DNA of 64,000 bases from a phage. Position 1 is the stretch's first letter. Each line of letters begins with the position of its first letter. The notes under the pieces were generated by a model that saw only the letters and a list, made by a program, of their open reading frames with translations, ran no database searches and was not told the origin of the DNA. Of the stretch, positions 9,578 through 28,813 are shown piece after piece. Location of the stretch: the sequence record PZ402305.1; one strand, 5' to 3'. The position numbers and the translations under genes were made by a program.

Positions 9578-9590
9578 AAGGAGAAATACA

Positions 9591-13476: not shown

Positions 13477-14466
13477 ATGCCAGTAAAGAAGAGTATTGAA
13501 CAATATATTGAAGAGTGTCAACCTATTGCTGCTGCTAAAGGGATTGAGATTATTGGAATTGTTGAGCCGTTTACAGGACAACACACGAAAATGATCAATC
13601 GTTGTCAGTATGCTCATGAATGGAACACTACAACATTTAAAAACTTTAAAACTGGTCGTGCTGGTTGTCCTGTCTGTGCAATTGGGAAAGGATTTGGGAA
13701 AGGAGGTAAGACAGACGATCAGCACATAAAAGATTTCATTAACACAGGAAAGTTTAAACCTGGTACCATTTTCACCAATACAGGCAAACGTAAAGGGAGT
13801 CATATTCTCTGGATGGTTGAATGTCCTGTTTGTTCTCATGATGAATACGTACAAGCAGGAGTGTGTGATGGTAAATTTTACATTGCAGGGAACGATCTTA
13901 AAAAAGGGATTATCCCTTGTCGTTGTACTAGAGTTTACCGTTATACAAAAGATCAGATCACTTACAAGGTGAGAAAAGGTTTAGAAAGTAAAGGATATAT
14001 CTGGATAGAGTGGATTAGTAAACCTTCCTCAACAGGAGAGTTTAAATATGGATGTAAGGATCACGGGGAGCAAATAGGGAATGCTGACCACTTATTACAT
14101 AAGGGGCGTGGTTGTCCGAAGTGTAAAGGGCATACACAACAACAGGCATACATCAACTATATCTACGATGAACAAAATCTTCTCTGTGCTTTGAAGTTTG
14201 GTATTGCCAATAGTAGTGATCGCCGTATCAAAGAACAAAATAGTCATAATGTGTTTACTATGAAACAGAGCCAAGTGTGGCACTTCCCTACTGTGAAGCA
14301 ATGCAAAGATGCAGAAAAGCGTTGTAAGCGTGTCCTTCACACGGAAGCAGTGAGCAAATATTCTATGCCAGATGGCTACACAGAAACAGTAGAGTTATCT
14401 TGCATGGCCTCAATACAAAACATTTATAAACTTTATGGTGGAACATTACAGGAGGAAACATGTTAG
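13477..14466 (+). CDS. Cys-rich putative multi-zinc-ribbon protein
   Basis: Repeated CPVC/CPxC/GRGCPKCKG pairs; start moved to ATG at 13477. Confidence 0.6.
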   Translation: MPVKKSIEQYIEECQPIAAAKGIEIIGIVEPFTGQHTKMINRCQYAHEWNTTTFKNFKTGRAGCPVCAIGKGFGKGGKTDDQHIKDFINTGKFKPGTIFTNTGKRKGSHILWMVECPVCSHDEYVQAGVCDGKFYIAGNDLKKGIIPCRCTRVYRYTKDQITYKVRKGLESKGYIWIEWISKPSSTGEFKYGCKDHGEQIGNADHLLHKGRGCPKCKGHTQQQAYINYIYDEQNLLCALKFGIANSSDRRIKEQNSHNVFTMKQSQVWHFPTVKQCKDAEKRCKRVLHTEAVSKYSMPDGYTETVELSCMASIQNIYKLYGGTLQEETC

Positions 14467-14825
14467 TTGACGTTCAAATTATGCGCAACGAAAGAATGGA
14501 CTTCTTTGAAGCAGTAGAGAAACATCTGATCAGATGGGACTATGAATTTGTTCCTGCTGGATGTGGACCAGTAGAGCATTTAGCGGAAGACGACGATGTA
14601 TACATGATCATTCGTCAAGTGTACCAGACAGACCAGTGTGAAGAAACTCCCGAACTAATTTTGTTTGAGTGCAAAGATCTTGCAAAATATTTTGACTATG
14701 GCGGAAAAGAGGGTCATAATCTCTCCAGATACAATAAACGCCTACTTATCTTAGACTACATGCGGAACAACAAACACAAACTAATCGACGCAGACGCAGT
14801 TTATGGCTACTGGTGGATGGATTAA
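14460..14825 (+). CDS. hypothetical protein (121 aa)
   Basis: Track ORF. Confidence 0.6.
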   Translation: MLVDVQIMRNERMDFFEAVEKHLIRWDYEFVPAGCGPVEHLAEDDDVYMIIRQVYQTDQCEETPELILFECKDLAKYFDYGGKEGHNLSRYNKRLLILDYMRNNKHKLIDADAVYGYWWMD

Positions 14826-14838
14826 CAAAGGAGAAACT

Positions 14839-15018
14839 ATGGCACGTTTAGCAGATCATGAAATCTTTAAACCTATTCTGAACCACTATGATGAACTTAA
14901 AGCAGTGTTGGATTGTTATAAAGAGGATGAAGAACGCTTGGAAGTCAATCTTAAGATAGTTCTGATGAAAGCTTTTCAAGACGGGCAAGCTAAAGTCTTA
15001 GAAGGTATGAAAAAATGA
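14839..15018 (+). CDS. hypothetical protein (59 aa)
   Basis: AAGGAGAAACT then ATG. Confidence 0.5.
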   Translation: MARLADHEIFKPILNHYDELKAVLDCYKEDEERLEVNLKIVLMKAFQDGQAKVLEGMKK

Positions 15019-15557
15019 GAATAACTGACGAATATGTATTCTTCTTTTCACATAAAGATGTTTTTAGTAATTGGTATATTGCACCCTTTACAGAAACCGA
15101 ACCAGGTTACAATCAGACATTTAATTGTGTCGAACAATACATGATGTGGCGTAAAGCTTTGCTTTTTAATGACCACAACACTGCACAGGCTATTCTGACT
15201 CATAGTTTGATACGGAAAGATGAGAAGATCCAAGCTTATTACAAACGTATGGGTAGGGCAGTGTCGGATTTTGATAACAACGTATGGGAAGAGAACCGTG
15301 AGCGTATTGTTATGCGAGGTTTATGCTTGAAATATGTACAGAATCCAGATTTGTATGCAGACTTACACCTTTACCAATACAAAACGTTTGTTGAAGCAAG
15401 CCCCTACGATAAGGTTTACGGAATTGGAATGGGGATGTATGAACCAGGGGTGCTAAACCCTGCCACCTGGAAAGGGCAGAATCTTTTAGGCAAATATCAT
15501 AACAAACTGATCGAAATACTTTTCCCAGACAAAATACCGCAAAGACGATATTTGTGA
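15015..15557 (+). CDS. NADAR-domain (DUF1768/YbiA-like) protein
   Basis: FFFSHKDVFSNWY, NCVEQYMMWRKALLFND, ASPYDKVYGIG fit the NADAR fold signature. Confidence 0.7.
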   Translation: MRITDEYVFFFSHKDVFSNWYIAPFTETEPGYNQTFNCVEQYMMWRKALLFNDHNTAQAILTHSLIRKDEKIQAYYKRMGRAVSDFDNNVWEENRERIVMRGLCLKYVQNPDLYADLHLYQYKTFVEASPYDKVYGIGMGMYEPGVLNPATWKGQNLLGKYHNKLIEILFPDKIPQRRYL

Positions 15558-15604
15558 TATTTTAACTTTTTTCATTTTTAGAACAAAGGTGTCACTTTGT
15601 AGCA

Positions 15605-15660
15605 CAGAAATAAGGCTCCTACAACACTGTAGAGAGCCTATTATTTTGTCCTATACAAAC
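15605..15660 (+). terminator. Hairpin terminator after NADAR gene
   Basis: Nested inverted repeat AGGCTC-CTACA-ACAC-TGTAG-GAGCCT followed by T-rich tract; approximate. Confidence 0.45.
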
Positions 15661-15779
15661 ACTTATCTTTTTCAGTTTGCATCATTAGGATTCGATCTAG
15701 GTGGGTTCCTGAAGGTCTGCCAATAAGATTAAAGGTTATCTCAAATTACCCCTACTTGTTATCTCAAAAATTCCTCAAA

Positions 15780-15990
15780 TTATTTAAACTTTTTAAGAAT
15801 TTACAAAAGTGAAAGTTGAAAACCAAAATTTAAAGTTTAGGAAAATTATCTTAAAATGTTAGATACAAAACAAAACTCAAAAGTCAAGGAAAATTTTAAA
15901 AATTTTGCGCGCCCACAGTATTTAAAGTTTTTTTGCTTTTACAAAAATGAAAGTACAAAAGCAAAATTTAAAGTTTACAAAAATTTATGC
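15780..15990. repeat. A-rich direct repeats (iteron-like)
   Basis: Two ~45 bp near-copies ACAAAAGTGAAAGTTGAAAACCAAAATTTAAAGTTTAGGAAAATT and ACAAAAATGAAAGTACAAAAGCAAAATTTAAAGTTTACAAAAATT plus shorter relatives. Confidence 0.55.
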
Positions 15991-16025
15991 AGATGGGAAT
16001 GAGAAGAGTTCTCATATGGAAATGC

Positions 16026-16046
16026 AAATGATAATGATTCGCATTT
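16026..16046. promoter_or_regulatory. Fur-box-like palindrome 1
   Basis: AAATGATAATGATTCGCATTT resembles Fur consensus GATAATGATAATCATTATC. Confidence 0.4.
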
Positions 16047-16083
16047 AGGTTTATAAATGAGATTGATTCTTATTCGATAAGGT

Positions 16084-16104
16084 AAATGATAATCATTCTC
16101 ATTT
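16084..16104. promoter_or_regulatory. Fur-box-like palindrome 2
   Basis: AAATGATAATCATTCTCATTT; 12 contiguous core matches to Fur consensus. Confidence 0.45.
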
Positions 16105-16362
16105 AGAGAATGACGCGCAGGGGCGGTGTTTGTCTCGCGTTCCCGTGTCCCCTCGCCATGTAATAAGAATAACAGATCCAGCCAGGAAAGCAAGCGATTA
16201 TTTCATCTTTACATTTCTTTACAAATATATAGCGCCCAGCCTACCGGCGATCAACCTTCCAACCAGTGCCCCTGGTATGTTAGCCCCGCCTTTACGCCGT
16301 GGGGTGGCGCTTCCTCTTCTGTATGTAAAACAGTATAAGCCCGATCCCTGGGCTTGTCAAGA

Positions 16363-16629
16363 TTATTTTTTGTTTTCTTGCCAGGATAGGACACCTAACC
16401 AAAAATACATATCGCCCCGCGCCCCTGGCGGGATCTTGCTTTCCCCGCCGCCACTGCAAGCCCATAGATAACCATTTGCGAACGTATCAAAATGATCTAT
16501 CTCTTCCACCTTATGATCGCCCAGGTTGAGAACGGTTTCAACCTTTAAGCCCGTTGCGCTTGCTACCTGGTGCACCGTGCCGCCTTGCCAGCCCAATGAG
16601 TGCATAAGGTGTAATGTAGTAGTTGTCAT
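16363..16629 (-). CDS. hypothetical protein (88 aa) in GC-rich island
   Basis: Only minus-strand ORF inside the plus-strand region; local GC clearly above surrounding phage DNA. Confidence 0.4.
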   Translation of the reverse strand: MTTTTLHLMHSLGWQGGTVHQVASATGLKVETVLNLGDHKVEEIDHFDTFANGYLWACSGGGESKIPPGARGDMYFWLGVLSWQENKK

Positions 16630-16736
16630 GGTATCGCCCTTTCTTTGTTGTGCGCCCTGGTTGGCGCGGTAGAAAGATGATAGCCCTTTCCTTTATATAT
16701 AGCAAGCAAAAAGAAAATAAAAAGATTGAAAAAGTG

Positions 16737-16795
16737 GTTGACGTTCGCCAGGTGGCGGCATAATATTTACCACGTAGGGCGGCAATGGTGCCGCT
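16737..16795 (+). promoter_or_regulatory. Early-type promoter + 5' hairpin module
   Basis: TTGACG-N17-TAATAT then CACGTAGGGCGGCAATGGTGCCGCTC. Confidence 0.6.
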
Positions 16796-16815
16796 CACTA
16801 TTTGGAGTTAAGATC

Positions 16816-17013
16816 ATGGCAACATTGCACATTGTGGCGAAAGCTGGACAAATCAACGTAATAGTAAACGGTTTTACTGAGTTCAGTCATCCCCAGGATG
16901 ATCATGAAACGGTTTTATCTTTCATTGATTCACTGTTAGAAATGGGAGTAATTACAGAAGATCAGCATACTGCAAAATGCAAGCGCGTTAAGCAGATTGC
17001 AGGAATAGAATAA
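16816..17013 (+). CDS. small hypothetical protein (65 aa)
   Basis: Start moved to ATG downstream of promoter/hairpin. Confidence 0.6.
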   Translation: MATLHIVAKAGQINVIVNGFTEFSHPQDDHETVLSFIDSLLEMGVITEDQHTAKCKRVKQIAGIE

Positions 17014-17018
17014 AAGTC

Positions 17019-17076
17019 TTGACAACAAGCCACAACCTGATAAGATGTATCACATAGGGGCGACAAGCGCCCCGCC
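17019..17076 (+). promoter_or_regulatory. Early-type promoter + 5' hairpin module
   Basis: TTGACA-N16-TAAGAT; hairpin GGGGCGACAAGCGCCCCGCC. Confidence 0.55.
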
Positions 17077-17097
17077 TAACAGAAGAGAGAAATCATC

Positions 17098-17370
17098 ATG
17101 GCATCATATAGCGCAACAATGATCGTAACTGGCACCACTGGTAAACCGATGAGCGGTGGCGGATCTTTCGCTAATATCAATATTGACGGGCGTTTATCCC
17201 TGGACGCAGCGATTGCCATTGCACGGGAAACATTTAAGAAAGAATGTAATTTCAACAAGCAAGATTATCTCGGTTTCGCTATTGAAAAAACCGCGCGCTT
17301 TGTTGATTATAAAAGCCCGAAAATGGTTGATACTACACTAAAAGCGCAAGATGTAGCGTTTTTGCTTTAA
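17098..17370 (+). CDS. small hypothetical protein (90 aa)
   Basis: Track ORF. Confidence 0.6.
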   Translation: MASYSATMIVTGTTGKPMSGGGSFANINIDGRLSLDAAIAIARETFKKECNFNKQDYLGFAIEKTARFVDYKSPKMVDTTLKAQDVAFLL

Positions 17371-17373
17371 GGC

Positions 17374-17429
17374 TTGACATTAACGAATAATTTGTTAATA
17401 TGTTACATAAAGCGGGAATAGTTCCCGCT
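17374..17429 (+). promoter_or_regulatory. Early-type promoter + 5' hairpin module
   Basis: TTGACA ... TAATAT; hairpin GCGGGAATAGTTCCCGC. Confidence 0.55.
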
Positions 17430-17446
17430 ATTTGTAAGGTGGTAGA

Positions 17447-17704
17447 ATGTTTTACATCAAATTAAAAGGTCACGTGATCGCGTTCAAAGATAACGCTTTT
17501 TACAGATTAGCAAAATATGCGTTAATACATCCCCACTATGTTTATATAAGGGGGCGTGACGAAATAAATATTTTTGATCAAACAACATGCGAAAACATCG
17601 AGATCCGCAAGGTTGGCGTACGTGATTATCGTACATCTTTCTACCCTTGCAAGGATTCAGCAAGTCTTTTTAAGGTATGTCAATTGTTGAAAAAAGGTGG
17701 TTAA
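17447..17704 (+). CDS. small hypothetical protein (85 aa)
   Basis: Track ORF. Confidence 0.6.
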   Translation: MFYIKLKGHVIAFKDNAFYRLAKYALIHPHYVYIRGRDEINIFDQTTCENIEIRKVGVRDYRTSFYPCKDSASLFKVCQLLKKGG

Positions 17705-17705
17705 T

Positions 17706-18263
17706 ATGGGCCGCGAATATGTGATCCAGTCTTGGGTAAAACATGAAGCAGATGATCCGCGCATCATTCCCGATCATCTTATCGATGAATCCACGGGATA
17801 TAGCGGTGAGCAAATAGGTAGCAGATTAGCACGTAGTAACGGCAACGTAAAAGCGCGTTATGTGCGCCCTGGCTGGCTGGCAAATGGTAACGCTGATTTA
17901 TCCAGTGCGGAAGATGCGAGCGACGGCGCGAAAGATAATCCTTTGTACAAAGTTGATCCGGCTTTTCGTGTCCTGGATGAATACCCCAGCAAGATAGCGG
18001 CGCTCGATCAGGCCCTGGAAAGTAAGCGCATCACCTGGACCGCTTACAACATGGCAAAAAACGTACTTGATGGTAAATTGATTCAAGCTGAAAGAAAATT
18101 AGCCAAAATTGCAGCCATAGCCCAGGAGGAAGACGAGGAGACAACGGAAGAGGAAGAGTACGAAGAGATCCCGCCGTTGTTGTGCGTTGATGCTTTTCCT
18201 GATTATCAGCCGACAGAGGAAGAAAAAAGGATCGCACTAGAAAACTTTGAAAATAGTCTTTGA
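17706..18263 (+). CDS. hypothetical protein with acidic C-terminus (185 aa)
   Basis: Start moved to ATG after AAAGGTGG; C-terminal EEDEETTEEEEYEE. Confidence 0.6.
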   Translation: MGREYVIQSWVKHEADDPRIIPDHLIDESTGYSGEQIGSRLARSNGNVKARYVRPGWLANGNADLSSAEDASDGAKDNPLYKVDPAFRVLDEYPSKIAALDQALESKRITWTAYNMAKNVLDGKLIQAERKLAKIAAIAQEEDEETTEEEEYEEIPPLLCVDAFPDYQPTEEEKRIALENFENSL

Positions 18264-18316
18264 CATATCGCCGCCACTGGCATAATATTTACCACGTAGG
18301 GCGGCAATGGTGCCGC
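18260..18316 (+). promoter_or_regulatory. Early-type promoter + 5' hairpin module
   Basis: TTGACA overlapping upstream stop; CATAAT; CACGTAGGGCGGCAATGGTGCCGC. Confidence 0.55.
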
Positions 18317-18345
18317 TCATAGTGAAATTATGCAAGAGGCTTACA

Positions 18346-18441
18346 ATGATTAATAAAGAAAATAGCTTGACGGTTGGAACGATTAACGCTATCATTTTCG
18401 CCGTTCCATTTTGGGTTGTATTAGCGGCTATTATTTTCTAA
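18346..18441 (+). CDS. small membrane peptide (31 aa)
   Basis: Not in track; only ORF behind this promoter; hydrophobic; approximate. Confidence 0.35.
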   Translation: MINKENSLTVGTINAIIFAVPFWVVLAAIIF

Positions 18442-18451
18442 AAAAATATTC

Positions 18452-18511
18452 TTGACAACGTTTTTTAATCTGATAAGATGTATCACATAGGGCGGCGGAA
18501 TACTTCCCCGC
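18452..18511 (+). promoter_or_regulatory. Early-type promoter + 5' hairpin module
   Basis: TTGACA ... TAAGAT; hairpin GGCGGCGGAATACTTCCCCGCC. Confidence 0.55.
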
Positions 18512-18533
18512 CAAAACAAAAAAGGGTAACACA

Positions 18534-18896
18534 ATGAGCAAGCAAATCAATACTATCATGTTTAATCTGGTATCTTTCCGCGATGATATGAAAAATTTAC
18601 CACGTGAAACGGTTGATATTCATGTTTCAGCTTATCGCGCCCTTATTGATATGTTACCGCTAAAACGTGATCAACATGCCGCTAATATGATGCTTAATGC
18701 TATGCTTAAAAAGATGATTCAAACGGATCTTACTCTGGCGTATGAGTATCAAGGGCGCTTATATGCTACTTACAACAAAGCGGTACCTGGTCTGGGAAGT
18801 ACCGAAGAGTTGCACGGCTTAAACCTGGATCAAAACACTTGGGATAGTATGCGCCGCGTTATGGTATGGGCCGAAAGCGGTAAAATTTACGAATAA
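18534..18896 (+). CDS. small hypothetical protein (120 aa)
   Basis: Track ORF. Confidence 0.6.
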   Translation: MSKQINTIMFNLVSFRDDMKNLPRETVDIHVSAYRALIDMLPLKRDQHAANMMLNAMLKKMIQTDLTLAYEYQGRLYATYNKAVPGLGSTEELHGLNLDQNTWDSMRRVMVWAESGKIYE

Positions 18897-18902
18897 AAAC
18901 GG

Positions 18903-18958
18903 TTGACACTGTTTAAAATTCTGGTATAGTTTATCACGTAGGGCGGCAATGGTGCCGC
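18903..18958 (+). promoter_or_regulatory. Early-type promoter + 5' hairpin module
   Basis: TTGACA ... TATAGT; CACGTAGGGCGGCAATGGTGCCGCC. Confidence 0.55.
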
Positions 18959-18979
18959 CAATAATAAAAGGTTAACATC

Positions 18980-19159
18980 ATGGCTATCATTGCAAAAACT
19001 GAGATTATAGGTTTAGATTCGATCCTCCTGGCTTATGAGGAAACTTTAAAAATGTATGTAGTGACCTATGGTGATTATGTGCGTGAATACGAATACATTG
19101 ATCTTGCTTTCGAATGTTACATTCGCCAGGTCAATAAAGCCTATAACGATTATCGTTAA
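18980..19159 (+). CDS. small hypothetical protein (59 aa)
   Basis: Not in track; sole ORF behind promoter; approximate. Confidence 0.45.
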   Translation: MAIIAKTEIIGLDSILLAYEETLKMYVVTYGDYVREYEYIDLAFECYIRQVNKAYNDYR

Positions 19160-19178
19160 AAGTTTTAGTCTTATACTA

Positions 19179-19236
19179 TTGACAATGAGTGATAGTATAA
19201 GCATAATAACTTTTATCGGGAATACTTCCCACTAAC
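19179..19236 (+). promoter_or_regulatory. Early-type promoter + 5' hairpin module
   Basis: TTGACA-N17-CATAAT; hairpin GGGAATACTTCCC. Confidence 0.5.
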
Positions 19237-19256
19237 CAAAAAGAGAGAGTGACACC

Positions 19257-19622
19257 ATGGCTATTAATATCAATGTTTCCGTTTATGCTACCCTGGCTGA
19301 CACGGCTAAAATTGAATTATCCAGCATTGAGGCGGTGCATATTAGCGCCCGTCGCTGGTTTCAACAGTCCTACGGTAACACATATTTTTCTTTAATAGTT
19401 GACGTTGAGATCGGCGGTAAACTGATCGAGGTGGTTAACGTTCCGTTTCAATATGGCTATGGTGATCATTTTGATACCGTCGCCCTGGAAGAATTTAGCA
19501 AGGTTATCAACCTTGAGGGCAAGGAATTTTCACGCGGCGCGTATCTTTCCCGTTTTTGCCGTGACAATGGGATCACTGTATACAGTCATGCAAGCGATGT
19601 AAAACGTAAAAAAGATTTATAA
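19257..19622 (+). CDS. small hypothetical protein (121 aa)
   Basis: Track ORF. Confidence 0.6.
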   Translation: MAININVSVYATLADTAKIELSSIEAVHISARRWFQQSYGNTYFSLIVDVEIGGKLIEVVNVPFQYGYGDHFDTVALEEFSKVINLEGKEFSRGAYLSRFCRDNGITVYSHASDVKRKKDL

Positions 19623-19627
19623 AAGTA

Positions 19628-19690
19628 TTGACAGCACGAATAAAAAGAGTAAACTGTATTACATAGAGAGCGGGAACACTTCCCGCCTCA
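19628..19690 (+). promoter_or_regulatory. Early-type promoter + 5' hairpin module
   Basis: TTGACA-N16-TAAACT; hairpin GCGGGAACACTTCCCGCC. Confidence 0.55.
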
Positions 19691-19710
19691 CTGAAAAAGA
19701 GAGAAAAATC

Positions 19711-19950
19711 ATGGCTAAATCTAAAATGTACAACGGTCACAAAAACAAAACTCATTGGAATGTAAGCCTTTGGATTAATAACGATGAATCATTATATCGG
19801 TTGGCGAAAGAATTTATCGCCGCTAATACTAATCGTAATGATGCTGCGCGGGATATGATGCTTTTTCTGGAACAAACTGGACAAGATAAAACGCCAGACG
19901 GTTTCAAATATAGCACTACTGCGATCCGCGCCGCGATGGTTGGAATGTAA
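19711..19950 (+). CDS. small hypothetical protein (79 aa)
   Basis: Track ORF. Confidence 0.6.
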   Translation: MAKSKMYNGHKNKTHWNVSLWINNDESLYRLAKEFIAANTNRNDAARDMMLFLEQTGQDKTPDGFKYSTTAIRAAMVGM

Positions 19951-19959
19951 TAAAAACAG

Positions 19960-20017
19960 TTGACAACGTTTAAAATTAGTGTAAGATGTATCACATAGGG
20001 CGGGAAGTGGTTTCCCG
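19960..20017 (+). promoter_or_regulatory. Early-type promoter + 5' hairpin module
   Basis: TTGACA ... TAAGAT; hairpin GGGCGGGAAGTGGTTTCCCGCC. Confidence 0.55.
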
Positions 20018-20041
20018 CCAACAACAGAGAGATTAAAGATT

Positions 20042-20269
20042 ATGGCTATCAATATTGTTCGCGTATCCGGCACCGTTGGCACTTCCCAGGTTATTGCAGT
20101 TGTAACAAACAAAAAGATTAATGATGTATGTGAGATCTTGAATAAGTGGGCTATTGCTAATTTTGGGGAATATGCAAGCGTCGAGTACATCGAATCCTAC
20201 CAGGTGCCAACCATCAGCCTAACCGATCTCAACGTTGATCGCCTGTTATGCCTGGATGAATTAATCTGA
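20042..20269 (+). CDS. small hypothetical protein (75 aa)
   Basis: Track ORF. Confidence 0.6.
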   Translation: MAINIVRVSGTVGTSQVIAVVTNKKINDVCEILNKWAIANFGEYASVEYIESYQVPTISLTDLNVDRLLCLDELI

Positions 20270-20278
20270 AAAAGATTG

Positions 20279-20335
20279 TTGACACGGGAAAGAAAAAGAG
20301 TAAACTATATTACGTAGGGCGGCAATGGTGCCGCT
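20279..20335 (+). promoter_or_regulatory. Early-type promoter + 5' hairpin module
   Basis: TTGACA-N16-TAAACT; ACGTAGGGCGGCAATGGTGCCGC. Confidence 0.55.
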
Positions 20336-20359
20336 CACAACAGAAGAGAGATTATCACG

Positions 20360-20572
20360 ATGGCTAATATCCGCACACTGTTAAAAAATGCAAAACAAGT
20401 TTTATTTTCTGATCACAATCATTTTAATAAAGATATTACAGGCGTGAAGAATATCAAAGATGTAAAAAGTGTTATGGGTATATATTGCAATGTTAAACGT
20501 GTTGGAACGTTCGGTGACAAGGTATTGTATCAATCAGGTGATTACAATTTTACTTTGACGATTATTTCATAA
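20360..20572 (+). CDS. small hypothetical protein (70 aa)
   Basis: Track ORF. Confidence 0.6.
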   Translation: MANIRTLLKNAKQVLFSDHNHFNKDITGVKNIKDVKSVMGIYCNVKRVGTFGDKVLYQSGDYNFTLTIIS

Positions 20573-20577
20573 AACGC

Positions 20578-20639
20578 TTGCAATACTGCAAAAATAAAGT
20601 AAACTGTATTACATCAAGGCGGGGAATGGTCCACCGCCT
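20578..20639 (+). promoter_or_regulatory. Early-type promoter + 5' hairpin module
   Basis: TTGCAA ... TAAACT; hairpin GGCGGGGAATGGTCCACCGCC. Confidence 0.5.
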
Positions 20640-20662
20640 AACAAAGAGAAGAGGAAAACATC

Positions 20663-20830
20663 ATGATTACTTTTACTACCCGTGAAGCCGCTCGCAACGT
20701 TGCACGTAAAGTTAACGCCGCCAACCTGGGTGCTACGCTTAAAGCCCCTGTAAAAGATGAATCAGGCAAATGGATCTTCCCTGGTCTGCGTCATGCTGAC
20801 AAGTTAGGTACTTTAAGCCTTAAAAAATAA
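20663..20830 (+). CDS. small hypothetical protein (55 aa)
   Basis: Not in track; approximate. Confidence 0.45.
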   Translation: MITFTTREAARNVARKVNAANLGATLKAPVKDESGKWIFPGLRHADKLGTLSLKK

Positions 20831-20833
20831 TCG

Positions 20834-20880
20834 TTGACTTTTCGTTATAGCGCCTTATAATGGGCGCTATAGAGAAGAGA
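20834..20880 (+). promoter_or_regulatory. Promoter with -10 embedded in a palindrome
   Basis: TTGACT-N16-TATAAT inside inverted repeat ATAGCGCC/GGCGCTAT. Confidence 0.5.
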
Positions 20881-20908
20881 AACCAATCACCAGAAAGAGA
20901 GAAAGAAA

Positions 20909-21127
20909 ATGGCAATCCGTAAAATTAAAGTTGTTTGCATTGAATCAACTGGTGGCGCGTTTGTAGTTGGTCAGAAGTATAATGCGGTTTTAATGGGCGT
21001 GGATTGGAAGGTTAAAGGTCTTGACGGTTACGAATACGGCACTACTCGCGGCTTGCGTGGTCGAATCGGATACGTGAGCTTTGACAACAAAGAAAAATTT
21101 GTTTTCGATACTGTTATGAGTAAATAG
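20909..21127 (+). CDS. small hypothetical protein (72 aa)
   Basis: Track ORF. Confidence 0.6.
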   Translation: MAIRKIKVVCIESTGGAFVVGQKYNAVLMGVDWKVKGLDGYEYGTTRGLRGRIGYVSFDNKEKFVFDTVMSK

Positions 21128-21200
21128 CACGAATTGCTAAAAACTAATCTGCGAATTGCTGTAATATCAACTAATCGAAACACATAAAGAGAAAAACATC

Positions 21201-21422
21201 ATGATCACTTTCGCTATTGTCACCGTTGTCGCTGGTCAAGTTTACGTAAATGAGACATTTACTACAGAAGACAAAGCAGCAGGAGATATAACCGCCGTTT
21301 ACAACGAGTGCAAGGCAGTAGAAAGGATGTTAGCGCCTTGTATGCTAATGAGTGAACGCCAGGACGGGATAACAGTGTTTAGCAACATTGAAACAGGGTA
21401 CCAAATGGTAGTAACAAAATAA
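21201..21422 (+). CDS. small hypothetical protein (73 aa)
   Basis: Track ORF. Confidence 0.6.
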   Translation: MITFAIVTVVAGQVYVNETFTTEDKAAGDITAVYNECKAVERMLAPCMLMSERQDGITVFSNIETGYQMVVTK

Positions 21423-21426
21423 AACT

Positions 21427-21485
21427 TGACACAGATTTAATTTTCAGTAAACTGTTACACATAGGGCGGGAATAGTTCCCGCTAA
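21427..21485 (+). promoter_or_regulatory. Early-type promoter + 5' hairpin module
   Basis: TTGACA ... TAAACT; hairpin GCGGGAATAGTTCCCGC. Confidence 0.55.
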
Positions 21486-21500
21486 AAAGAGAGAAAGACC

Positions 21501-21854
21501 ATGAAAGCACAAAATGCAATTAAAGAGTACATCCTTGCCGCTATCGATTTTAATGATTATGGTATTACAACCGAAAAAGAGAAGATCGCGGAATTGATGC
21601 GCCGTTTTAATTCCGAGTACTGGTACCCTGATAATCAATCACGTTTTAATTATAGTATTGTTAAAGCACTTGCATCATGGTTACAAGGTTTGCCATCAGA
21701 CATTAATATCGCTTTCGAATATTGGGAAATTGATCGTTTGTTAACATCCTGGGGATACATTAAAGAGAATAGCAGCGATGATAAAATCCAACGAGAAAGG
21801 GAAAATTATTGGCTTTATATTGCAGGCGTGATCCTTGCTTGCTCTTATGAATGA
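21501..21854 (+). CDS. small hypothetical protein (117 aa)
   Basis: Track ORF. Confidence 0.6.
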   Translation: MKAQNAIKEYILAAIDFNDYGITTEKEKIAELMRRFNSEYWYPDNQSRFNYSIVKALASWLQGLPSDINIAFEYWEIDRLLTSWGYIKENSSDDKIQRERENYWLYIAGVILACSYE

Positions 21855-21860
21855 TAAACC

Positions 21861-21918
21861 TTGACAATTTTACAAAACAGCTTAAATTAATAATATAGCG
21901 GCAATGGTGCCGCTCATA
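21861..21918 (+). promoter_or_regulatory. Early-type promoter + 5' hairpin module
   Basis: TTGACA ... TAATAT; hairpin GCGGCAATGGTGCCGC. Confidence 0.55.
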
Positions 21919-21933
21919 TAAAGAGGAAACAAA

Positions 21934-22080
21934 ATGAATACATCTAATCGCGCAGAAAAAATTCAATCTCCCAAGATCCGCAAGGCCTGGAACGAGGAAG
22001 TGATCCGCAAAGGCGACAAGCGTAATAAAACAAAGCGCGGGAAGAGTGACAAATATAATTGGATGGATTTAGAGGATTAA
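21934..22080 (+). CDS. small basic protein (48 aa)
   Basis: Not in track; Lys/Arg-rich; followed by terminator; approximate. Confidence 0.45.
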   Translation: MNTSNRAEKIQSPKIRKAWNEEVIRKGDKRNKTKRGKSDKYNWMDLED

Positions 22081-22084
22081 CATA

Positions 22085-22115
22085 ACAAGGGCGCACCAAG
22101 CGCCCTTTCTTTTTA
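22085..22115 (+). terminator. Rho-independent terminator
   Basis: AAGGGCGCACCAAGCGCCCTTTCTTTTT; same hairpin recurs at 27172. Confidence 0.6.
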
Positions 22116-22135
22116 CATGTAGAGGATAAACAAAA

Positions 22136-22321
22136 ATGACTTTAAACGAGCTTAAAACAGCCTACAACGCAACGTTAAAAATAGCCGTGCGTTACCGTGA
22201 CGAATACGGTTTTATTGCGCAGGGCGTGATCCTGGGCTTTTCTGACGATGGTTTGATTTATGTTGATGCACATCACAACAAGGTTAAACCGGAAAACGTT
22301 ATCAGTATAAAATATCTTTAA
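22136..22321 (+). CDS. small hypothetical protein (61 aa)
   Basis: Track ORF. Confidence 0.55.
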   Translation: MTLNELKTAYNATLKIAVRYRDEYGFIAQGVILGFSDDGLIYVDAHHNKVKPENVISIKYL

Positions 22322-22327
22322 AAGTGG

Positions 22328-22390
22328 TTGACACCATAACCGGACCTGTTAAACTGTATTACATCAGGCGGGGGAATAGTTCCCCACCAT
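22328..22390 (+). promoter_or_regulatory. Early-type promoter + 5' hairpin module
   Basis: TTGACA ... TAAACT; hairpin GGCGGGGGAATAGTTCCCCACC. Confidence 0.55.
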
Positions 22391-22407
22391 ACAAAAAGGT
22401 AAATATT

Positions 22408-22614
22408 ATGATCACCGCAAAACAAGAAAAAATCATTATCGACGTTGCAGCCGTTGCCGCTATTGCTATTATTGGATCTTATTATGATACCCGTTTCCCG
22501 TCGGCTATGCATGAGGTCGCCGCCGTTGCATCAGTTGGCGTACTGTTTTACGTTGGTAAACGCTATTTATCACCAATGATTAACAAGCTGACACCGTGGA
22601 AAAATAAAGGTTGA
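22408..22614 (+). CDS. small membrane protein (68 aa)
   Basis: Start moved to ATG after promoter; two hydrophobic segments. Confidence 0.55.
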   Translation: MITAKQEKIIIDVAAVAAIAIIGSYYDTRFPSAMHEVAAVASVGVLFYVGKRYLSPMINKLTPWKNKG

Positions 22615-22685
22615 TCCTGTTTTATATTGTGTTATAGTTATCGTGTAGGGCGGCAATGGTGCCGCGCCCCTTTGAGGATGCAATC

Positions 22686-22970
22686 ATGAGTAAAGCTAAC
22701 ACCGTGCTAATGTTTTCCCTGATTAATGATCCCGCTTACTTGTCCAACATGACGCAGGAGGGTAACACATTAACGGCAACATTCACCAATAAGCTTGACC
22801 GAGTGATCATCATCTCACTGAAAACAGTTAGTAAAGGCTTTTACTCGTTAGCTTATCATTGGATCACTGATACCGATGAGACAAGCCAGGACTATAGCGC
22901 CCCTTTCCCTGAATCAATGGCACGGGAGATCATCGCCGCCGTTGTAAATGATGGTTTGTTTACTGCATAA
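22686..22970 (+). CDS. small hypothetical protein (94 aa)
   Basis: Start moved to ATG after GAGG; hairpin GGGCGGCAATGGTGCCGC in leader. Confidence 0.55.
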   Translation: MSKANTVLMFSLINDPAYLSNMTQEGNTLTATFTNKLDRVIIISLKTVSKGFYSLAYHWITDTDETSQDYSAPFPESMAREIIAAVVNDGLFTA

Positions 22971-22985
22971 AAATTTAGAAAAGGC

Positions 22986-23045
22986 TTGCAATAATTTTGA
23001 GATAGTGTATATTTAATTCATAGGGCGGCGGGAATAGTTCCCAAA
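22986..23045 (+). promoter_or_regulatory. Early-type promoter + 5' hairpin module
   Basis: TTGCAA ... TATATT; hairpin GGGAATAGTTCCC. Confidence 0.5.
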
Positions 23046-23065
23046 GCAAACGAGAGGATTACACG

Positions 23066-23185
23066 ATGAGCAAGTACACAGTAGAATACACGGTAGAGAA
23101 TCCGGCAGTATCCGAAGGTAAAAAGATGACATTTGCCATCAGTATAATCGCTTTCGTTGTCACTATCTTATCAATCATCTTATAA
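23066..23185 (+). CDS. small membrane peptide (39 aa)
   Basis: Not in track; hydrophobic C-terminal half; approximate. Confidence 0.4.
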   Translation: MSKYTVEYTVENPAVSEGKKMTFAISIIAFVVTILSIIL

Positions 23186-23195
23186 GGTGCACACC

Positions 23196-23357
23196 ATGAA
23201 AATAACAGACATTATCAAAGAGATCGCCCTTGCCGCTGGCGTTGAAGTCGAGGAAGTGATCGCGCTCAATCTTACAGAAAACGATCTGCGCAACTATGAA
23301 GCGGAAAGCGTGAAAGCAAGCGGCGCGGTCCTGGTATATGATCCGGCTAACAAGTAA
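23196..23357 (+). CDS. small hypothetical protein (53 aa)
   Basis: In-frame ATG within track ORF 23157..23357. Confidence 0.5.
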   Translation: MKITDIIKEIALAAGVEVEEVIALNLTENDLRNYEAESVKASGAVLVYDPANK

Positions 23358-23366
23358 GGGGATAAC

Positions 23367-23477
23367 ATGAATCCGAAAGATATGCAAGCATGGAAAGGGT
23401 ACGACGATCTAAGCGCCTTGCGCAATAAGTCAAGCCGTAACCTTAGACGGTTGGAAGCAAAGAAAAAGAAAAAATAG
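23367..23477 (+). CDS. small basic peptide (36 aa)
   Basis: Not in track; AAGGGGA upstream; C-terminal KKKKK; approximate. Confidence 0.35.
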   Translation: MNPKDMQAWKGYDDLSALRNKSSRNLRRLEAKKKKK

Positions 23478-23478
23478 T

Positions 23479-23535
23479 TTGACAAGTCCGCGTAGTCTGA
23501 TAATATGTATCTTGTAGGGCGGCAATGGTGCCGCT
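23479..23535 (+). promoter_or_regulatory. Early-type promoter + 5' hairpin module
   Basis: TTGACA-N17-TAATAT; TTGTAGGGCGGCAATGGTGCCGC. Confidence 0.55.
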
Positions 23536-23555
23536 CACAAGAAGAGAGAAAAATC

Positions 23556-23840
23556 ATGAAAATTACAAAAAGCCTAACTAATTATGCAGCACGTCGCGGA
23601 TTATGTTTAACCGTTGAAAACTTAGGGAAAGAAGACTTTTTGTGTTTTTGGGAGCTTGAAAATGATTGCGAGTGGATGTTTTCTTATTCTATCTGCGAAG
23701 ATCAAAACGGTTGTTTGTTAACCTGGCGCGGTAATATCTATTTACCGGAAGAAATCAAAGAGGAACTACCAGGCACGATCATGACTGAGAAACAGCTTAA
23801 GGAAGTGATCAATTTTGTAGGGCAAAACATTAAAAAATAA
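23556..23840 (+). CDS. small hypothetical protein (94 aa)
   Basis: Start moved to ATG after promoter/hairpin. Confidence 0.6.
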   Translation: MKITKSLTNYAARRGLCLTVENLGKEDFLCFWELENDCEWMFSYSICEDQNGCLLTWRGNIYLPEEIKEELPGTIMTEKQLKEVINFVGQNIKK

Positions 23841-23841
23841 T

Positions 23842-23905
23842 TTGACAGTAGGCAAACAACGTAGTAAAGTTTATTACATAGAGCGGCGGAATGGTCCACC
23901 GCTCA
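23842..23905 (+). promoter_or_regulatory. Early-type promoter + 5' hairpin module
   Basis: TTGACA ... TAAAGT; hairpin GCGGCGGAATGGTCCACCGCTC. Confidence 0.55.
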
Positions 23906-23925
23906 CAACAGAAGAGAAACAAATC

Positions 23926-24096
23926 ATGATCCCGACTATGTTTTATGTATCGCGCAAAGGTCACAATATTTTTTGGTCTGAAGATTTAAATGAAGCTATG
24001 ACGTTTGCCCGTAATCGTGTTGCTATCGGTGGCGTTAACATCACCGTAACCGATGAAAATGGCATTGAATACTATAACGGCGACGATGAAGAATAA
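23926..24096 (+). CDS. small hypothetical protein (56 aa)
   Basis: Start moved to ATG after promoter/hairpin. Confidence 0.55.
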   Translation: MIPTMFYVSRKGHNIFWSEDLNEAMTFARNRVAIGGVNITVTDENGIEYYNGDDEE

Positions 24097-24174
24097 TTAA
24101 TGAGGCGGGGGGAGTATTCCCCGCCGTCAATATGGCGGGGCAATAAGGCAACGCCCATTAATGAGGGTAAAATC

Positions 24175-24279
24175 ATGTTAGAGAAAATTTTCACGGTTGC
24201 AGTGGTTGGCCTGGCGTTATCGGTTGGAGTGGTTGCAACTATGGCTAACATGATCCTATCTTCCCACGGTATCGGTTAA
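24175..24279 (+). CDS. small membrane peptide (34 aa)
   Basis: Not in track; preceded by two GC hairpins; approximate. Confidence 0.35.
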   Translation: MLEKIFTVAVVGLALSVGVVATMANMILSSHGIG

Positions 24280-24289
24280 GGTGAAACAA

Positions 24290-24505
24290 ATGATCACGAA
24301 CAAAACAGGCAAAACGGAATTTTTACGCGGCTTACAAGTTGGTAAGCCTGAGATCTGGCATTGCACGAAGTCCGCGCATAATGAAATGAAAGATTTCACC
24401 GCTACTTTACAACGTGTTAAAATATCTATTACACAGAAAAAAGCCTTGTTAGTAGTAGAAAACGAGATCCCACAAACTATTATTATTGTCGAGCGTACAG
24501 CATGA
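24290..24505 (+). CDS. small hypothetical protein (71 aa)
   Basis: AGGTGA then ATG at 24290. Confidence 0.55.
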   Translation: MITNKTGKTEFLRGLQVGKPEIWHCTKSAHNEMKDFTATLQRVKISITQKKALLVVENEIPQTIIIVERTA

Positions 24506-24888
24506 AAACAGAAATCATTATTGAAATCATCAACGGCTATAAAGAAGCTTTTATTTTTGCTGAATCAGCAAGGGATCATGAAGGTAATTTTATTGATAAC
24601 TTAGACGATTATGATTTTTCTCCTAGCGCGGACGAACGGATCGCCCAGGATGTAACAGCCTTTATTAATGCTAATCTTGCCGCTATCTCTGAGGCAATGA
24701 GCGACGGCGCAACAGCCAACCAGATCGGGAATGATTTACATTTTACCCGTAACAGTCACGGCGTAGGCTTTTGGGATCGCCCTGAAATATACACCACTAA
24801 CACGGCGAACCGCCTAACCAATGCAGCTAAGTTTATGCCGAACGTGTCGGCTTACATTGGTGAAGATAATTTGATTTATATTGAATAA
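24502..24888 (+). CDS. small hypothetical protein (128 aa)
   Basis: Track ORF, ATGA overlap. Confidence 0.6.
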   Translation: MKTEIIIEIINGYKEAFIFAESARDHEGNFIDNLDDYDFSPSADERIAQDVTAFINANLAAISEAMSDGATANQIGNDLHFTRNSHGVGFWDRPEIYTTNTANRLTNAAKFMPNVSAYIGEDNLIYIE

Positions 24889-24894
24889 AAAGTA

Positions 24895-24950
24895 TTGACA
24901 CAGATCGCCAGTGTGCTAATATTTACCACGTAGGGCGGCAATGGTGCCGC
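24895..24950 (+). promoter_or_regulatory. Early-type promoter + 5' hairpin module
   Basis: TTGACA ... TAATAT; CACGTAGGGCGGCAATGGTGCCGC. Confidence 0.55.
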
Positions 24951-24971
24951 TCCCCGAAAAAGGTAAACATT

Positions 24972-25163
24972 ATGGAAACCATCTCCTACCTGGAATCGAA
25001 TAACATGTTTTTTGCGCCCGTTGATGAAATCATCGAAGCATTAAACAACGAGGAAGGGATCAAAGGTTTATCTTATAGCCAACTTTTAGGAATGGTTGCA
25101 GCAAATGAAGAGCTTGCTTACTATGTTGAAAATTTTGATGAAGCTGTAATCTTTACAAAATAA
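24972..25163 (+). CDS. small hypothetical protein (63 aa)
   Basis: Track ORF. Confidence 0.6.
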   Translation: METISYLESNNMFFAPVDEIIEALNNEEGIKGLSYSQLLGMVAANEELAYYVENFDEAVIFTK

Positions 25164-25166
25164 TCC

Positions 25167-25225
25167 TTGATCTAATCTCTTAGATAACTTATATTTAATG
25201 CGTAGGGCGGCAATGGTGCCGCCGA
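25167..25225 (+). promoter_or_regulatory. Early-type promoter + 5' hairpin module
   Basis: TTGATC ... TATATT; GCGTAGGGCGGCAATGGTGCCGCC. Confidence 0.5.
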
Positions 25226-27200: not shown

Positions 27201-28273
27201 GCCCGAATAATGTTGATAGATTCCGCCTATGGAAAACCGACACAGAACAAAACTGAATAAATAGCGGTATCGAGCTAATCAACCATTAAACGAATAACCA
27301 TACCTCCCAGGGTAACAGGCTGTTAGAGAGCCATTTAGAGCGGTTAAAATCGATCAACAACCAACAAAAAACCATCAAAAACACCCTTTTACCTCCTTTC
27401 TAGTGCAATGATAACCATTATCATCTATCCATGTTTATCTATGCAATATAAGTGCATAACTATAATGTTGATAATAGTTCGCAACAACTAACTAACCAAC
27501 AACCTAAAACAATAAGCAAACTAATCATAATCAAAGGAATAATAGCAAGATGATTGATAACGACAAACAATCAAACCATGATGAATACTAAGCAAGATAA
27601 CGATAACACGACAAAACAACCAACTAACGAACAATAACAAACGAAACCATTAAAATAATAACTATTAGCAAAATAGTGCCTGAATGAAATCATTACAAAA
27701 CGAATCATTCACAGGATCATCATTAGCACGCTATGCCGGACACATAGCGAGCTAATAATAAGCCAACTACACCCCAACAATCATAACCATCGGTGATGGT
27801 TATTTCTTGTTACTGCGTAGCTTGCAATAATTGCAAGCGTAATACGCTTACACTTATTGCGCTGGCTTATTATTAGCATTATATGTAATTACCAAGATCA
27901 TAACATTAGCGCAATAACAATAATCATTGTGGTAATTACAAGATGAAATAATCGCTATCGCTCAAAGATCATTAGCAAGATGAATAATTGCACGTAGCAA
28001 CATGAGCGAATAGCGACAGGTTGCATAGTGTGCACATAGATGTACACGTAGTGTATAAACATACAGGAAAATAAAGGCTAATCTTTTGGGGGCGAATACT
28101 ATCGCGTAGCGATATGTTGAGCACTAAGAGAAGAGATAAACCTTAATCATGGGGGCGTAAATATCCGCAGGATTGCCAACGGCGATCCGGTAGGATGTTG
28201 AGCATCTTCTCTTAAACGTAAATAAAATCAGAAAATTCTTGATTTATTTTAGTTTTTATGTTAATAAACGTTT

Positions 28274-28301
28274 AAATAATAATCATTCTCATATGAATAA
28301 T
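28274..28301. promoter_or_regulatory. Fur-box-like palindrome 3
   Basis: AATAATAATCATTCTCATATGAATAAT shares ATAATCATTCTCAT core with 16084 site. Confidence 0.4.
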
Positions 28302-28450
28302 AGTCTGCTTGTCATGAGCGGGATCAGTTGACAATGTTCCGTCATATGATGAAGTTGCCAAACCATTGATAAATAAGTGTTTGTGTGATTTATAATCAAG
28401 TGGCCCACCTTGTCGCTATGTTGGCATGAGCCTTGCATAAGTCATTGAAT

Positions 28451-28480
28451 ACGAATGATAATTATTCTCATTCGCATGAT
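28451..28480. promoter_or_regulatory. Fur-box-like palindrome 4
   Basis: ACGAATGATAATTATTCTCATTCGCATGAT, near-perfect inverted repeat. Confidence 0.4.
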
Positions 28481-28813
28481 ATTTGAGAATTGTCGCTGCG
28501 TGGACCTGACGGCCCGAAAATTCGCGTTAAGCACTTCTTACGTATGCGCCATGATTTTTGCCATATGATATTGATTCTATTAGATATTCTTGCCATGATT
28601 GCCATGAAACAGGGTGTCCCGAAATAATCTCTCCCCGTAGATATTTTGGGTTACTTTTTATACAAGAGTGGGGTGTCAAAAATAATCGGTATATATGGGA
28701 TAATTGATAGGAATCCCCTATGATAATTCGATTGTAATTCCCTGAGATTGATCGTATGATGTTGGTGATTGATGATTGCCATGAAAGATGGCTAACAATG
28801 AGAGGAGATTATC

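Follow-up and report, generated by a model that had tools for sequence, protein, structure and literature searches.

The DNA analysed here, called the window, is a stretch of 64,000 nucleotides from record PZ402305.1. It belongs to a virulent phAPEC8-like myophage (Phapecoctavirus, Stephanstirmvirinae) with E. coli as host; over positions 14000-18000 its identity is 98.7% with phage P3322 and 97.4% with tuntematon. The region under study contains an early array with nine promoter-linked 5' hairpin motifs, which makes up a right-terminal block of about 12 kb bracketed by predicted Fur boxes (Table 1). The hairpin motif TAGGGCGGCAATGGTGCCGCTC has 9 matches, on the + strand only, where 0 are expected, and such motifs are labelled as promoters in the annotation of phAPEC8. 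These annotated early promoters consist of TTGACA, 17 nt, TAAGAT or TAGAAT, a further 7 nt and then an A-TAGGGCGG hairpin. Functional annotation searched for the ORFs of the array assigned no function to any of them, and tRNA and Rfam searches of the window returned snoRNA noise only.

Table 1. Position of the predicted Fur boxes and neighbouring features in the window
Feature	Position	Strand	Description
Fur box 1 (AATGAGAAGAGTTCTCATA)	15998..16016		19.6 bits; first unit of 29-bp family D1
Fur box 2 (AATGATAATGATTCGCATT), originally predicted site 1	16027..16045		25.2 bits; exact core match
Fur box 3 (AATGAGATTGATTCTTATT)	16056..16074		21.7 bits; nearly identical to T5 box 9612-9630
Fur box 4 (AATGATAATCATTCTCATT), promoter-proximal, originally predicted site 2	16085..16103		28.3 of a possible 29.1 bits
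Conserved non-coding element adjoining the boxes	16104..16335		68-92% DNA identity in Stephanstirmvirinae and Vequintavirinae
Candidate Fur-occluded promoter	16106..16119	+	-10-like GAGAAT at 16106-16111, 7 nt, candidate start A16119 before GGGGCGG
Strong leftward sigma-70 promoter, TTGACA-17-TATACT	16332..16360	-	11/12 consensus positions; reads through the element towards the boxes
Early array with nine promoter-linked 5' hairpin motifs (TAGGGCGGCAATGGTGCCGCTC)	16775..25224	+	motif scan
Fur box in the A/C-rich non-coding kilobase before the terminal repeat	27407..27425		20.0 bits; 7-1-7 core with 1 mismatch
Weaker Fur box	27654..27672		18.6 bits; 20.6 bits in Schickermooser
Direct terminal repeat (physical genome ends)	28201..28529		329 bp, by mapping from Schickermooser
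Fur box in the terminal repeat, originally predicted site 3	28275..28293		24.3 bits; 74 nt from the left boundary
Extended Fur site in the terminal repeat, originally predicted site 4	28448..28472		28454-28472 at 28.3 bits

Four Fur-box-like sites had been predicted on the two sides of the array. All of them are real: those at 16028-16045, 16086-16103 and 28455-28472 match the core ATGATAATBATTCKCATT exactly, and the one at 28276-28293 carries 2 mismatches (ATAATAAT...CATA). Their number was understated, though, as the boxes at 15998, 16056, 27407 and 27654 had been missed; the window contains eight strong Fur boxes (Table 1). The four boxes on the left follow each other in exact 29-bp phase according to our repeat analysis (family D1), and they mark the inner limit of a segment at the right terminus, ~14 kb (9.3% of the genome) from the right end. 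Two of them overlap secondary sites shifted by 6 nt, at 16021 (13.8 bits, next to box 2) and at 16079 (next to box 4). Box 1 is kept in Schickermooser and tuntematon, and the annotation of tuntematon shows a 79-bp repeat_region at the position equivalent to the left sites first reported. In the same two phages, the 48-bp segment 16056-16103, which comprises box 3, the spacer and box 4, is inverted with its phasing preserved. Such an inversion would be tolerable for palindromic operators, but it shows that the segment contains no directional signal. The left array adjoins a 34%-GC stretch with 138-bp repeats. A host origin of this cluster was searched for across 5,426 E. coli genomes, with 0 matches. 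The original prediction placed its sites 1-4 nt upstream of the cores because flanking A's were included.

To score the boxes we used a weight matrix derived from 20 ChIP/MEME-supported E. coli Fur sites of 19 nt (Table S6 of PMC10219339), symmetrised and containing no phage sites. The host sites reach a leave-one-out median of 19.2 bits and at best 27.9 bits (gpmA), and the maximum of the matrix is 29.1 bits. On this independent, host-derived scale, the eight boxes of the window score 18.6-28.3 bits, within or above the host range, which bears out the proposed closeness to the Fur consensus. Host sites share the register of the phage boxes, for example TAATGATAACCATTCTCATAT of fecI, and positions 16082-16100 agree with the 19-bp Fur dyad GATAATGATAATCATTATC at 16/19 positions. 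The core ATGATAATBATTCKCATT, allowing at most 2 mismatches, has 6 matches in the window against 0.07 expected, and none of 100 shuffled sequences reached 6. With the same tolerance the Fur 7-1-7 core TGATAATNATTATCA gives 7 window matches (0.9 expected); five of these seven are in the two non-coding regions, and three of the five have at most 1 mismatch (0.1 expected). We also compared with the host frequency matrix boxes that had been chosen by position alone, at -29 from the proximal box. The correlation was r=0.92 in register, low-information positions included, and at most 0.35 when the register was shifted by 1-4 nt. Taken at the sequence level, the identity of these elements as Fur boxes is strongly supported.

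The boxes can thus be set beside the Fur operators of the E. coli chromosome (fecI, gpmA, fhuA, entC), with which they share the 19-bp dyad, the register and a score in the same range or above. Aerobactin iucA is a further operator of this chromosomal type. The window also has the 6-nt-shifted overlapping sites (at 28448, 16021 and 16079) and one box over a promoter-like element; overlapping sites of this kind are typical of natural Fur operators (PMC2189734). Unlike the chromosomal operators, the window boxes are separate at 29-bp spacing and are not contiguous runs of hexamers. They further differ in belonging to a virulent phage, in having no iron-related gene downstream and in that two of them are located in a terminal repeat.

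The sites had been described as lying in two non-coding regions that bracket the array. The bracketing is correct, with the nine hairpin motifs lying between the two groups, but the right-hand pair belongs to a terminal repeat and not to an ordinary spacer. In Schickermooser, the first 329 nt are exactly the last 329 nt and map to window positions 28201-28529 at 96.7% identity; Korf et al. give a terminal repeat of 328 bp for this phage (PMC6563267), and several records stop at about 28528. Since boxes 28275 and 28454 are inside this direct terminal repeat, they are present at both ends of the virion DNA. The 6-nt-shifted site at 28448 scores 18.2 bits, and the extended site to which it belongs is 57 nt from the right boundary of the repeat. 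In BME3, a phage of another genus, a 342-bp direct terminal repeat was determined with PhageTerm (PMC12210895). This repeat carries Fur boxes at both positions, the counterpart of the extended site scoring 28.3 bits, although the intervening sequence can hardly be aligned any more. No promoter is recognisable at the boxes of the terminal repeat. A terminal repeat of ~12 kb covering the whole early array, as the 161-kb WPEC1 record would imply, was rejected: WPEC1 is chimeric, made of ~155-bp pieces, and the real repeat is 329 bp long.

We then considered the distribution of such sites over a whole genome. The complete Schickermooser genome (151,194 bp) contains 12 sites of at least 18 bits, against ~0.4 in Markov controls, and all 12 belong to the four-box array, to two boxes ~1 kb from the right end or to the terminal repeats. 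One of the two, at 150186, is the counterpart of the 27407 box. A scan of IMG/VR for perfect-type boxes was not discriminating, with many unrelated contigs among the matches listed.

Sensitive BLAST showed that conserved DNA begins exactly at box 4 (about 16085-16330) and is found well beyond the genus. The identity of this non-coding element is ~91% in Justusliebigvirus and 68-76% in Vequintavirinae, where it is carried by phages of Escherichia, Cronobacter, Klebsiella, Pectobacterium, Serratia and Erwinia; in most of them no gene is annotated over it. It is phage-specific, and its + strand is rich in C (65 C vs 50 G). We ruled out that it is a protein gene, given indels of 1, 4 and 5 nt and annotations that conflict in strand and frame. 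Rfam gave no match to it, including in a permissive scan of 15900-16800, and the covariance term of RNAalifold was unfavourable for a structured RNA on both strands; hairpin z-scores ranged from -2.4 to +0.4 and were mostly weak.

An invariant 23-mer from the element, used to probe IMG/VR, yielded 14 additional loci, 22 in total (Justusliebigvirus, Certrevirus, Seunavirus and IMG/VR contigs), and every one of the 22 has adjacent Fur boxes. A box lies at a fixed offset in 21 loci (about -190 to -199 from the probe, -236 in L021), and in the remaining one a 29-bp-spaced pair of boxes is displaced upstream. In 110 kb of flanking DNA, 33 of the 36 sites with at least 20 bits are within 400 bp of the element. 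The relatives that we fetched have 1-5 Fur boxes of 19-29 bits before the element, often at 29-bp phase; in phage 4MG one box is a perfect consensus (29.1 bits), and in phage inoa the module of box plus GC hairpin is tandemly duplicated. The sequences of the boxes drift between phages, yet they stay within the limits of the motif, and the boxes are maintained across two phage subfamilies.

A conserved strong promoter and a candidate one face each other across the element. The hexamers of the leftward one are kept in relatives (TTGACG/TTGCAA and TATAnT/CATAAT), as is a spacing of 17-18 bp, and its spacer is a hairpin that varies among them. On the other side, the sequence (C/G)AGAAT, or at least GAAT, is invariant 2-4 nt past the proximal box in 17 distinct loci. 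It is followed by 7 nt and then by an A and a GC hairpin, the geometry seen in the early promoters of the array. A -35 hexamer TTGAAT with an 18-bp spacer accompanies it in Vequintavirinae; in the window there is only GTAAAT. This candidate promoter is weak, with 7-8 of 12 consensus positions, and falls below the threshold of our consensus scan. Its GAATGA could alternatively be an extra Fur half-site, and after the second module of phage inoa the promoter-like element is absent. In Vequintavirinae, the Fur box would fill the interval between the -35 and the spacer, which is the classical layout of a repressed promoter. RyhB and the tandem PrrF1/PrrF2 of Pseudomonas are Fur-repressed small-RNA genes. 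The window resembles them in having a Fur box over a candidate promoter for a short non-coding transcript, and phage inoa in having a tandem module. It differs from them in that its element has no sequence or Rfam similarity and no supported RNA structure, and in the strong convergent promoter that overlaps it. With its convergent promoters, this deeply conserved non-coding element is a target for transcript mapping.

Sensitive BLAST also showed that T5-like phages match the box cluster itself. EC142 has 3 boxes and HildyBeyeler 5, of up to 28.3 bits, beside DnaA boxes. In T5 (AY587007.1), boxes at 9473, 9577 and 9612 score 23.4, 28.3 and 23.4 bits; their positions are those annotated as 'direct repeat C' (copies 1-4) and 'palindromes E, G, I' (9468-9637), between the DnaA-box repeats and the 7.9% nick. 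By sequence, these repeats and palindromes of T5 are Fur boxes too. Davison places the shear point of first-step transfer at 9618, within the injection-stop region, and never mentions Fur (bioRxiv 10.1101/866236). In the 111.7 kb of non-redundant T5 sequence, five sites score 17 bits or more (~1.1 expected genome-wide); the terminal repeat holds all of them, and no recognisable promoter was found at these sites.

The likeness of the window to the T5 injection-stop (iss) region extends to a near-identical box 3 sequence, the 29-nt unit, a long non-coding region, a place at the inner limit of a terminal block of early genes and the absence of boxes elsewhere in the genome. The differences are as clear. 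T5 is from an unrelated family (Demerecviridae), its boxes are inside a 10-kb terminal repeat, it has no counterpart of the conserved element, and its paired DnaA boxes and 'direct repeat D' copies are both absent in the window phage. Two-step injection is established for T5-like phages only. BLASTP of Schickermooser against T5 identified just 11 shared proteins, namely RNR subunits, Sir2, PhoH, phosphatases, lysin, a weak endonuclease-like match and two small acidic unknowns. The two acidic proteins have no DNA-binding signature, and homologues of A1 and A2 are absent from these 11.

Because the shared proteins offer no box-binder, host Fur appears as the common factor that would read identical boxes in both lineages, and we consider it probable that host Fur binds the predicted boxes. 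The original prediction had left open host Fur or a phage regulator of similar specificity; host Fur is the one favoured, and for a phage regulator we found neither a Fur homologue nor a shared DNA-binding protein. A phage-encoded protein with Fur-like specificity, such as a repressor for early-gene shut-off, would make the likeness to Fur operators coincidental or mimetic. Most genes of the phage are without an assigned function, phased operator arrays heading an early region are typical of phage regulators, and remote homologues would evade searches at the BLAST level. Nevertheless, tblastn with E. coli Fur as query found no Fur homologue in any Stephanstirmvirinae record; in the same search the query matched a Salmonella fragment at 99.3%, and Fur was found in other phage records. 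Such a protein would also have to account for a host matrix that is matched position by position, even where the information content is low, and for T5-like and phAPEC8-like phages that have the same boxes and no plausible DNA-binding protein in common. Finally, phages of Escherichia, Cronobacter, Klebsiella, Pectobacterium and Serratia have all retained the boxes, and the factor common to them is the conserved host Fur. A phage-encoded reader is very unlikely in our view.

Our best explanation, to which we give a probability of roughly one half, is that the boxes are genuine, selectively maintained host-Fur operators, with a Fur-repressed promoter at the left cluster and Fur on the genome ends. 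Binding by Fur, the promoter and the regulatory outcome are what we infer here. Fur dimers loaded with Fe2+ would occupy each 19-bp box. Box 4 (16085-16103) would fill the interval from the -35 to the spacer of a weak sigma-70-type promoter that starts near A16119 and would read rightward into the conserved element heading the early-gene block, converging with the strong leftward promoter (16360 to 16332). In an iron-replete host, Fur would silence the rightward promoter and might block the leftward transcript as well; in an iron-starved host the rightward promoter would be released. The three upstream boxes, at their 29-bp phase, would raise the occupancy. Boxes 27407 and 27654, together with the terminal-repeat pair, would bring Fur to the two physical termini of the genome. 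Among concrete mechanisms, promoter repression at the left cluster has the best support and is plausible. The strong promoters of the array itself are without Fur boxes, so that control by Fur would not extend to the entire array.

Promoter repression nonetheless cannot account for everything, since neither T5 nor the terminal repeat has a recognisable promoter at its boxes. Taken with the constant 29-bp phasing and the parallel in T5, the boxes in the terminal repeat suggest a possible architectural role, either in addition or as an alternative, at the genome segment that enters first. On this account, arrays of Fur dimers would build a nucleoprotein structure on that terminal segment, which could pause DNA transfer as at the stop of T5, hold or synapse the terminal repeats, or shield the ends. 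It draws on several observations. The five T5 sites with 17 bits or more are confined to the terminal repeat, the three strongest being at the first-step-transfer stop; the five boxes of HildyBeyeler are at the same place; the window array bounds a terminal early-gene segment of comparable position (9.3% of the genome vs 7.9% in T5); further boxes are in both copies of the terminal repeat; the 29-bp unit is common to both lineages; and neither the terminal-repeat nor the T5 boxes are at a promoter. Against it, there is no evidence for two-step injection or for an order of end entry in phAPEC8-like and rV5-like phages, the DnaA-box pairs beside the T5 boxes are absent in the window phage, and it is not evident how a cytoplasmic protein on DNA that has already entered would halt further entry. 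The link of the boxes to genome ends is seen for Stephanstirmvirinae and T5 only. We regard a mainly architectural role as rather unlikely. A broader proposal would make host Fur a structural partner of large virulent coliphages, with arrays that mark the ends and the inner boundary of the first-entering takeover segment in two unrelated lineages, Fur acting as the long-sought host factor at the T5 stop and staged or iron-gated entry in phAPEC8-like and rV5-like phages; this is speculative and distinctly unlikely.

In the literature searched, we found neither a report of Fur boxes in these phages nor a transcriptome of the phage group; where a phage is mentioned at all, it is for the sit operons that lambdoid phages carry. 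Temperate phages do have Fur boxes, such as those of the sitABCD morons of lambdoid phages (PMC6969025). The stx1 promoter is another example. These boxes share with the window, where this is predicted, the wiring of phage DNA into the host Fur regulon. The temperate-phage boxes are single operators before cargo that benefits the lysogen, whereas those of the window are arrays in the non-coding and terminal DNA of a virulent phage. Fur operators are textbook knowledge; for strictly virulent phages, the literature searched reports no conserved, phased arrays of top-scoring sites in their non-coding and terminal DNA. If Fur binds, these broad-host-range phages, which are candidates for phage therapy, would read the iron status of their host. 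Laboratory media are very different in iron status from infected tissue or gut, so that the boxes could affect early expression or the efficiency of infection just where these phages would be applied. The relabelling of the T5 repeats makes the 50-year-old question of the first-step DNA transfer stop testable with a fur mutant.

We also weighed a role for the boxes as a sponge, in which replicating phage DNA would titrate Fur and de-repress host iron uptake for the benefit of the iron-dependent ribonucleotide reductases of the phage. De-repression of the regulon by multicopy Fur boxes is the principle of the Fur titration assay. This assay has been used in published work (PMC2189734). The window phage encodes NrdAB and NrdDG, as does T5, and with 7-9 boxes of top affinity (by matrix score) per genome it carries sites as strong as or above any chromosomal site in the set. 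However, a single incoming genome cannot titrate an abundant regulator, and the fixed phasing, the fixed place by the element and the placement in the terminal repeat would all be unneeded. T5 degrades host DNA within minutes (bioRxiv 10.1101/866236), which would make de-repression pointless there, yet its boxes are kept; a sponge is therefore unlikely to be general, and we consider it highly improbable for the window.

The left cluster could also be thought of as a replication origin: its four phased dyad iterons would adjoin an AT-rich region where the duplex unwinds, and the leftward promoter would provide the primer by transcribing a GC-rich element prone to R-loops. The four 19-bp dyad repeats do have constant spacing and lie beside the 34%-GC stretch with its 138-bp repeats, a conserved strong leftward promoter reads into the region, and the C-rich + strand of the element would make the leftward RNA rich in G. 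Origins of the lambda type likewise have four dyad-symmetric 19-bp repeats with regular spacing and an AT-rich neighbour. They differ in that the window motif is that of a host repressor, that no initiator gene is linked to it and that copies are found at the genome ends. The iterons of the window match this host motif instead of a private sequence, no linked initiator gene was identified, and the number of boxes varies from 1 to 5 among relatives. Boxes are also in the terminal repeat, and those of T5 are far from its mapped central origins (bioRxiv 10.1101/866236). We consider an origin at the left cluster highly improbable. DnaA boxes are not enriched in the window, with 18 matches against 20.6 expected; the sole match in either box-bearing region is at 27466-27474, with 1 mismatch.

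The left array holds four predicted sites for host Fur, of which box 3 and box 4 enclose a segment whose orientation differs among the relatives of the phage. Our comparison showed that this segment (box 3, spacer and box 4) is flipped in Schickermooser and tuntematon compared to the window and phAPEC8. The inversion measures 48 bp, is flanked by two mutually inverted palindromic boxes, and swaps which box is promoter-proximal. Immediately 5' of the array lies an AT-rich stretch containing a 138-bp direct repeat, with copies of 72 nt that are 82% identical, and a series of TTTACAAA-type motifs.

Beyond box 4, we identified a non-coding element with 68–92% DNA identity throughout Stephanstirmvirinae and Vequintavirinae. 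It contains three invariant stretches and is bounded by a conserved, predicted strong leftward promoter (TTGACA-17-TATACT). We looked for a matching Rfam family and for covariation within this element and found neither. One further motif pair of the TTTACAAA type is present inside it.

Boxes of the same kind occur in more distant phages. In inoa, an rV5-like Vequintavirus, a module made of a Fur box and a GC hairpin with loop GGTGnTTGTCTC is duplicated in tandem, and the second copy is without the GAAT motif. In the unrelated phage T5 (AY587007.1), predicted Fur boxes scoring 23.4–28.3 bits on the E. coli-derived Fur matrix, together with half-boxes, account for the injection-stop repeats that carry the annotations "direct repeat C copies 1-4" and "palindromes E, G, I". 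Every T5 site that reaches 17 bits falls within its terminal repeat; two of them are at 231 and at 6022, the latter at the start of inverted repeat C. The observation on this T5 region (L031) also covers loci L015 and L016.

Within the early array, each TAGGGCGGCAATGGTGCCGCTC copy forms a hairpin about 7 nt 3' of a strong sigma-70 promoter, and these promoters carry a "PHIRE" promoter annotation in phAPEC8. The hairpin is probably a 5' stabilising stem-loop on each early transcript.

Coordinates of the features (window unless stated)
Feature	Position	Detail
AT-rich stretch	15776-15985	~34% GC; five or six TTTACAAA-type motifs
Box 3–spacer–box 4 segment	16056-16103	
Conserved element	16104-16360	invariant: TCTTTACAnnTCTTTACAAA; ACCGGCGATCnACCTTCC; GTTAGCCCCGCCTTTnCGCCGTGGGGTGGCG
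TTTACAAA-type pair	16197-16225	
TAGGGCGGCAATGGTGCCGCTC hairpins	16775-25224	nine copies, + strand only
Last array gene's terminator	27172-27194	
Non-coding region	27200-28200	AT skew +0.24, GC skew -0.18
Third boundary-like copy	28113-28130	ATGTTGAGCACTAAGAG
Boundary motifs	28197-28213; 28526-28540	GTT(G/A)AGCA(T/C)(C)TTCT
20-nt direct repeats	28595-28614; 28772-28791	ATGATTGCCATGAAA(C/G)A(G/T)GG
First left-end gene	28814	
inoa module (L014)	672-960	
T5 boxes	9468-9637	

The array is followed by about 1 kb of non-coding DNA, between the terminator of its last gene and the terminal repeat. This region is of unusual composition, A/C-rich on the + strand, holds numerous short imperfect repeats and differs among relatives, with BLAST matches broken into 3–4 pieces. 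Both terminal-repeat boundaries share a common motif, the repeat starting and ending directly after its GTTG/GTTA, and a similar third copy lies ~85 nt upstream. This motif may be the terminase cutting signal. The 161-kb WPEC1 record (PV659873.1) is a scrambled assembly, many of its junctions measuring ~155 bp, roughly read length; a long terminal repeat as the source of its extra length was therefore rejected. Past the terminal repeat and ahead of the first left-end gene sits a 20-nt direct repeat, its copies 177 bp apart, the first of which overlaps a predicted promoter (TTGCCA-18-AATAAT).
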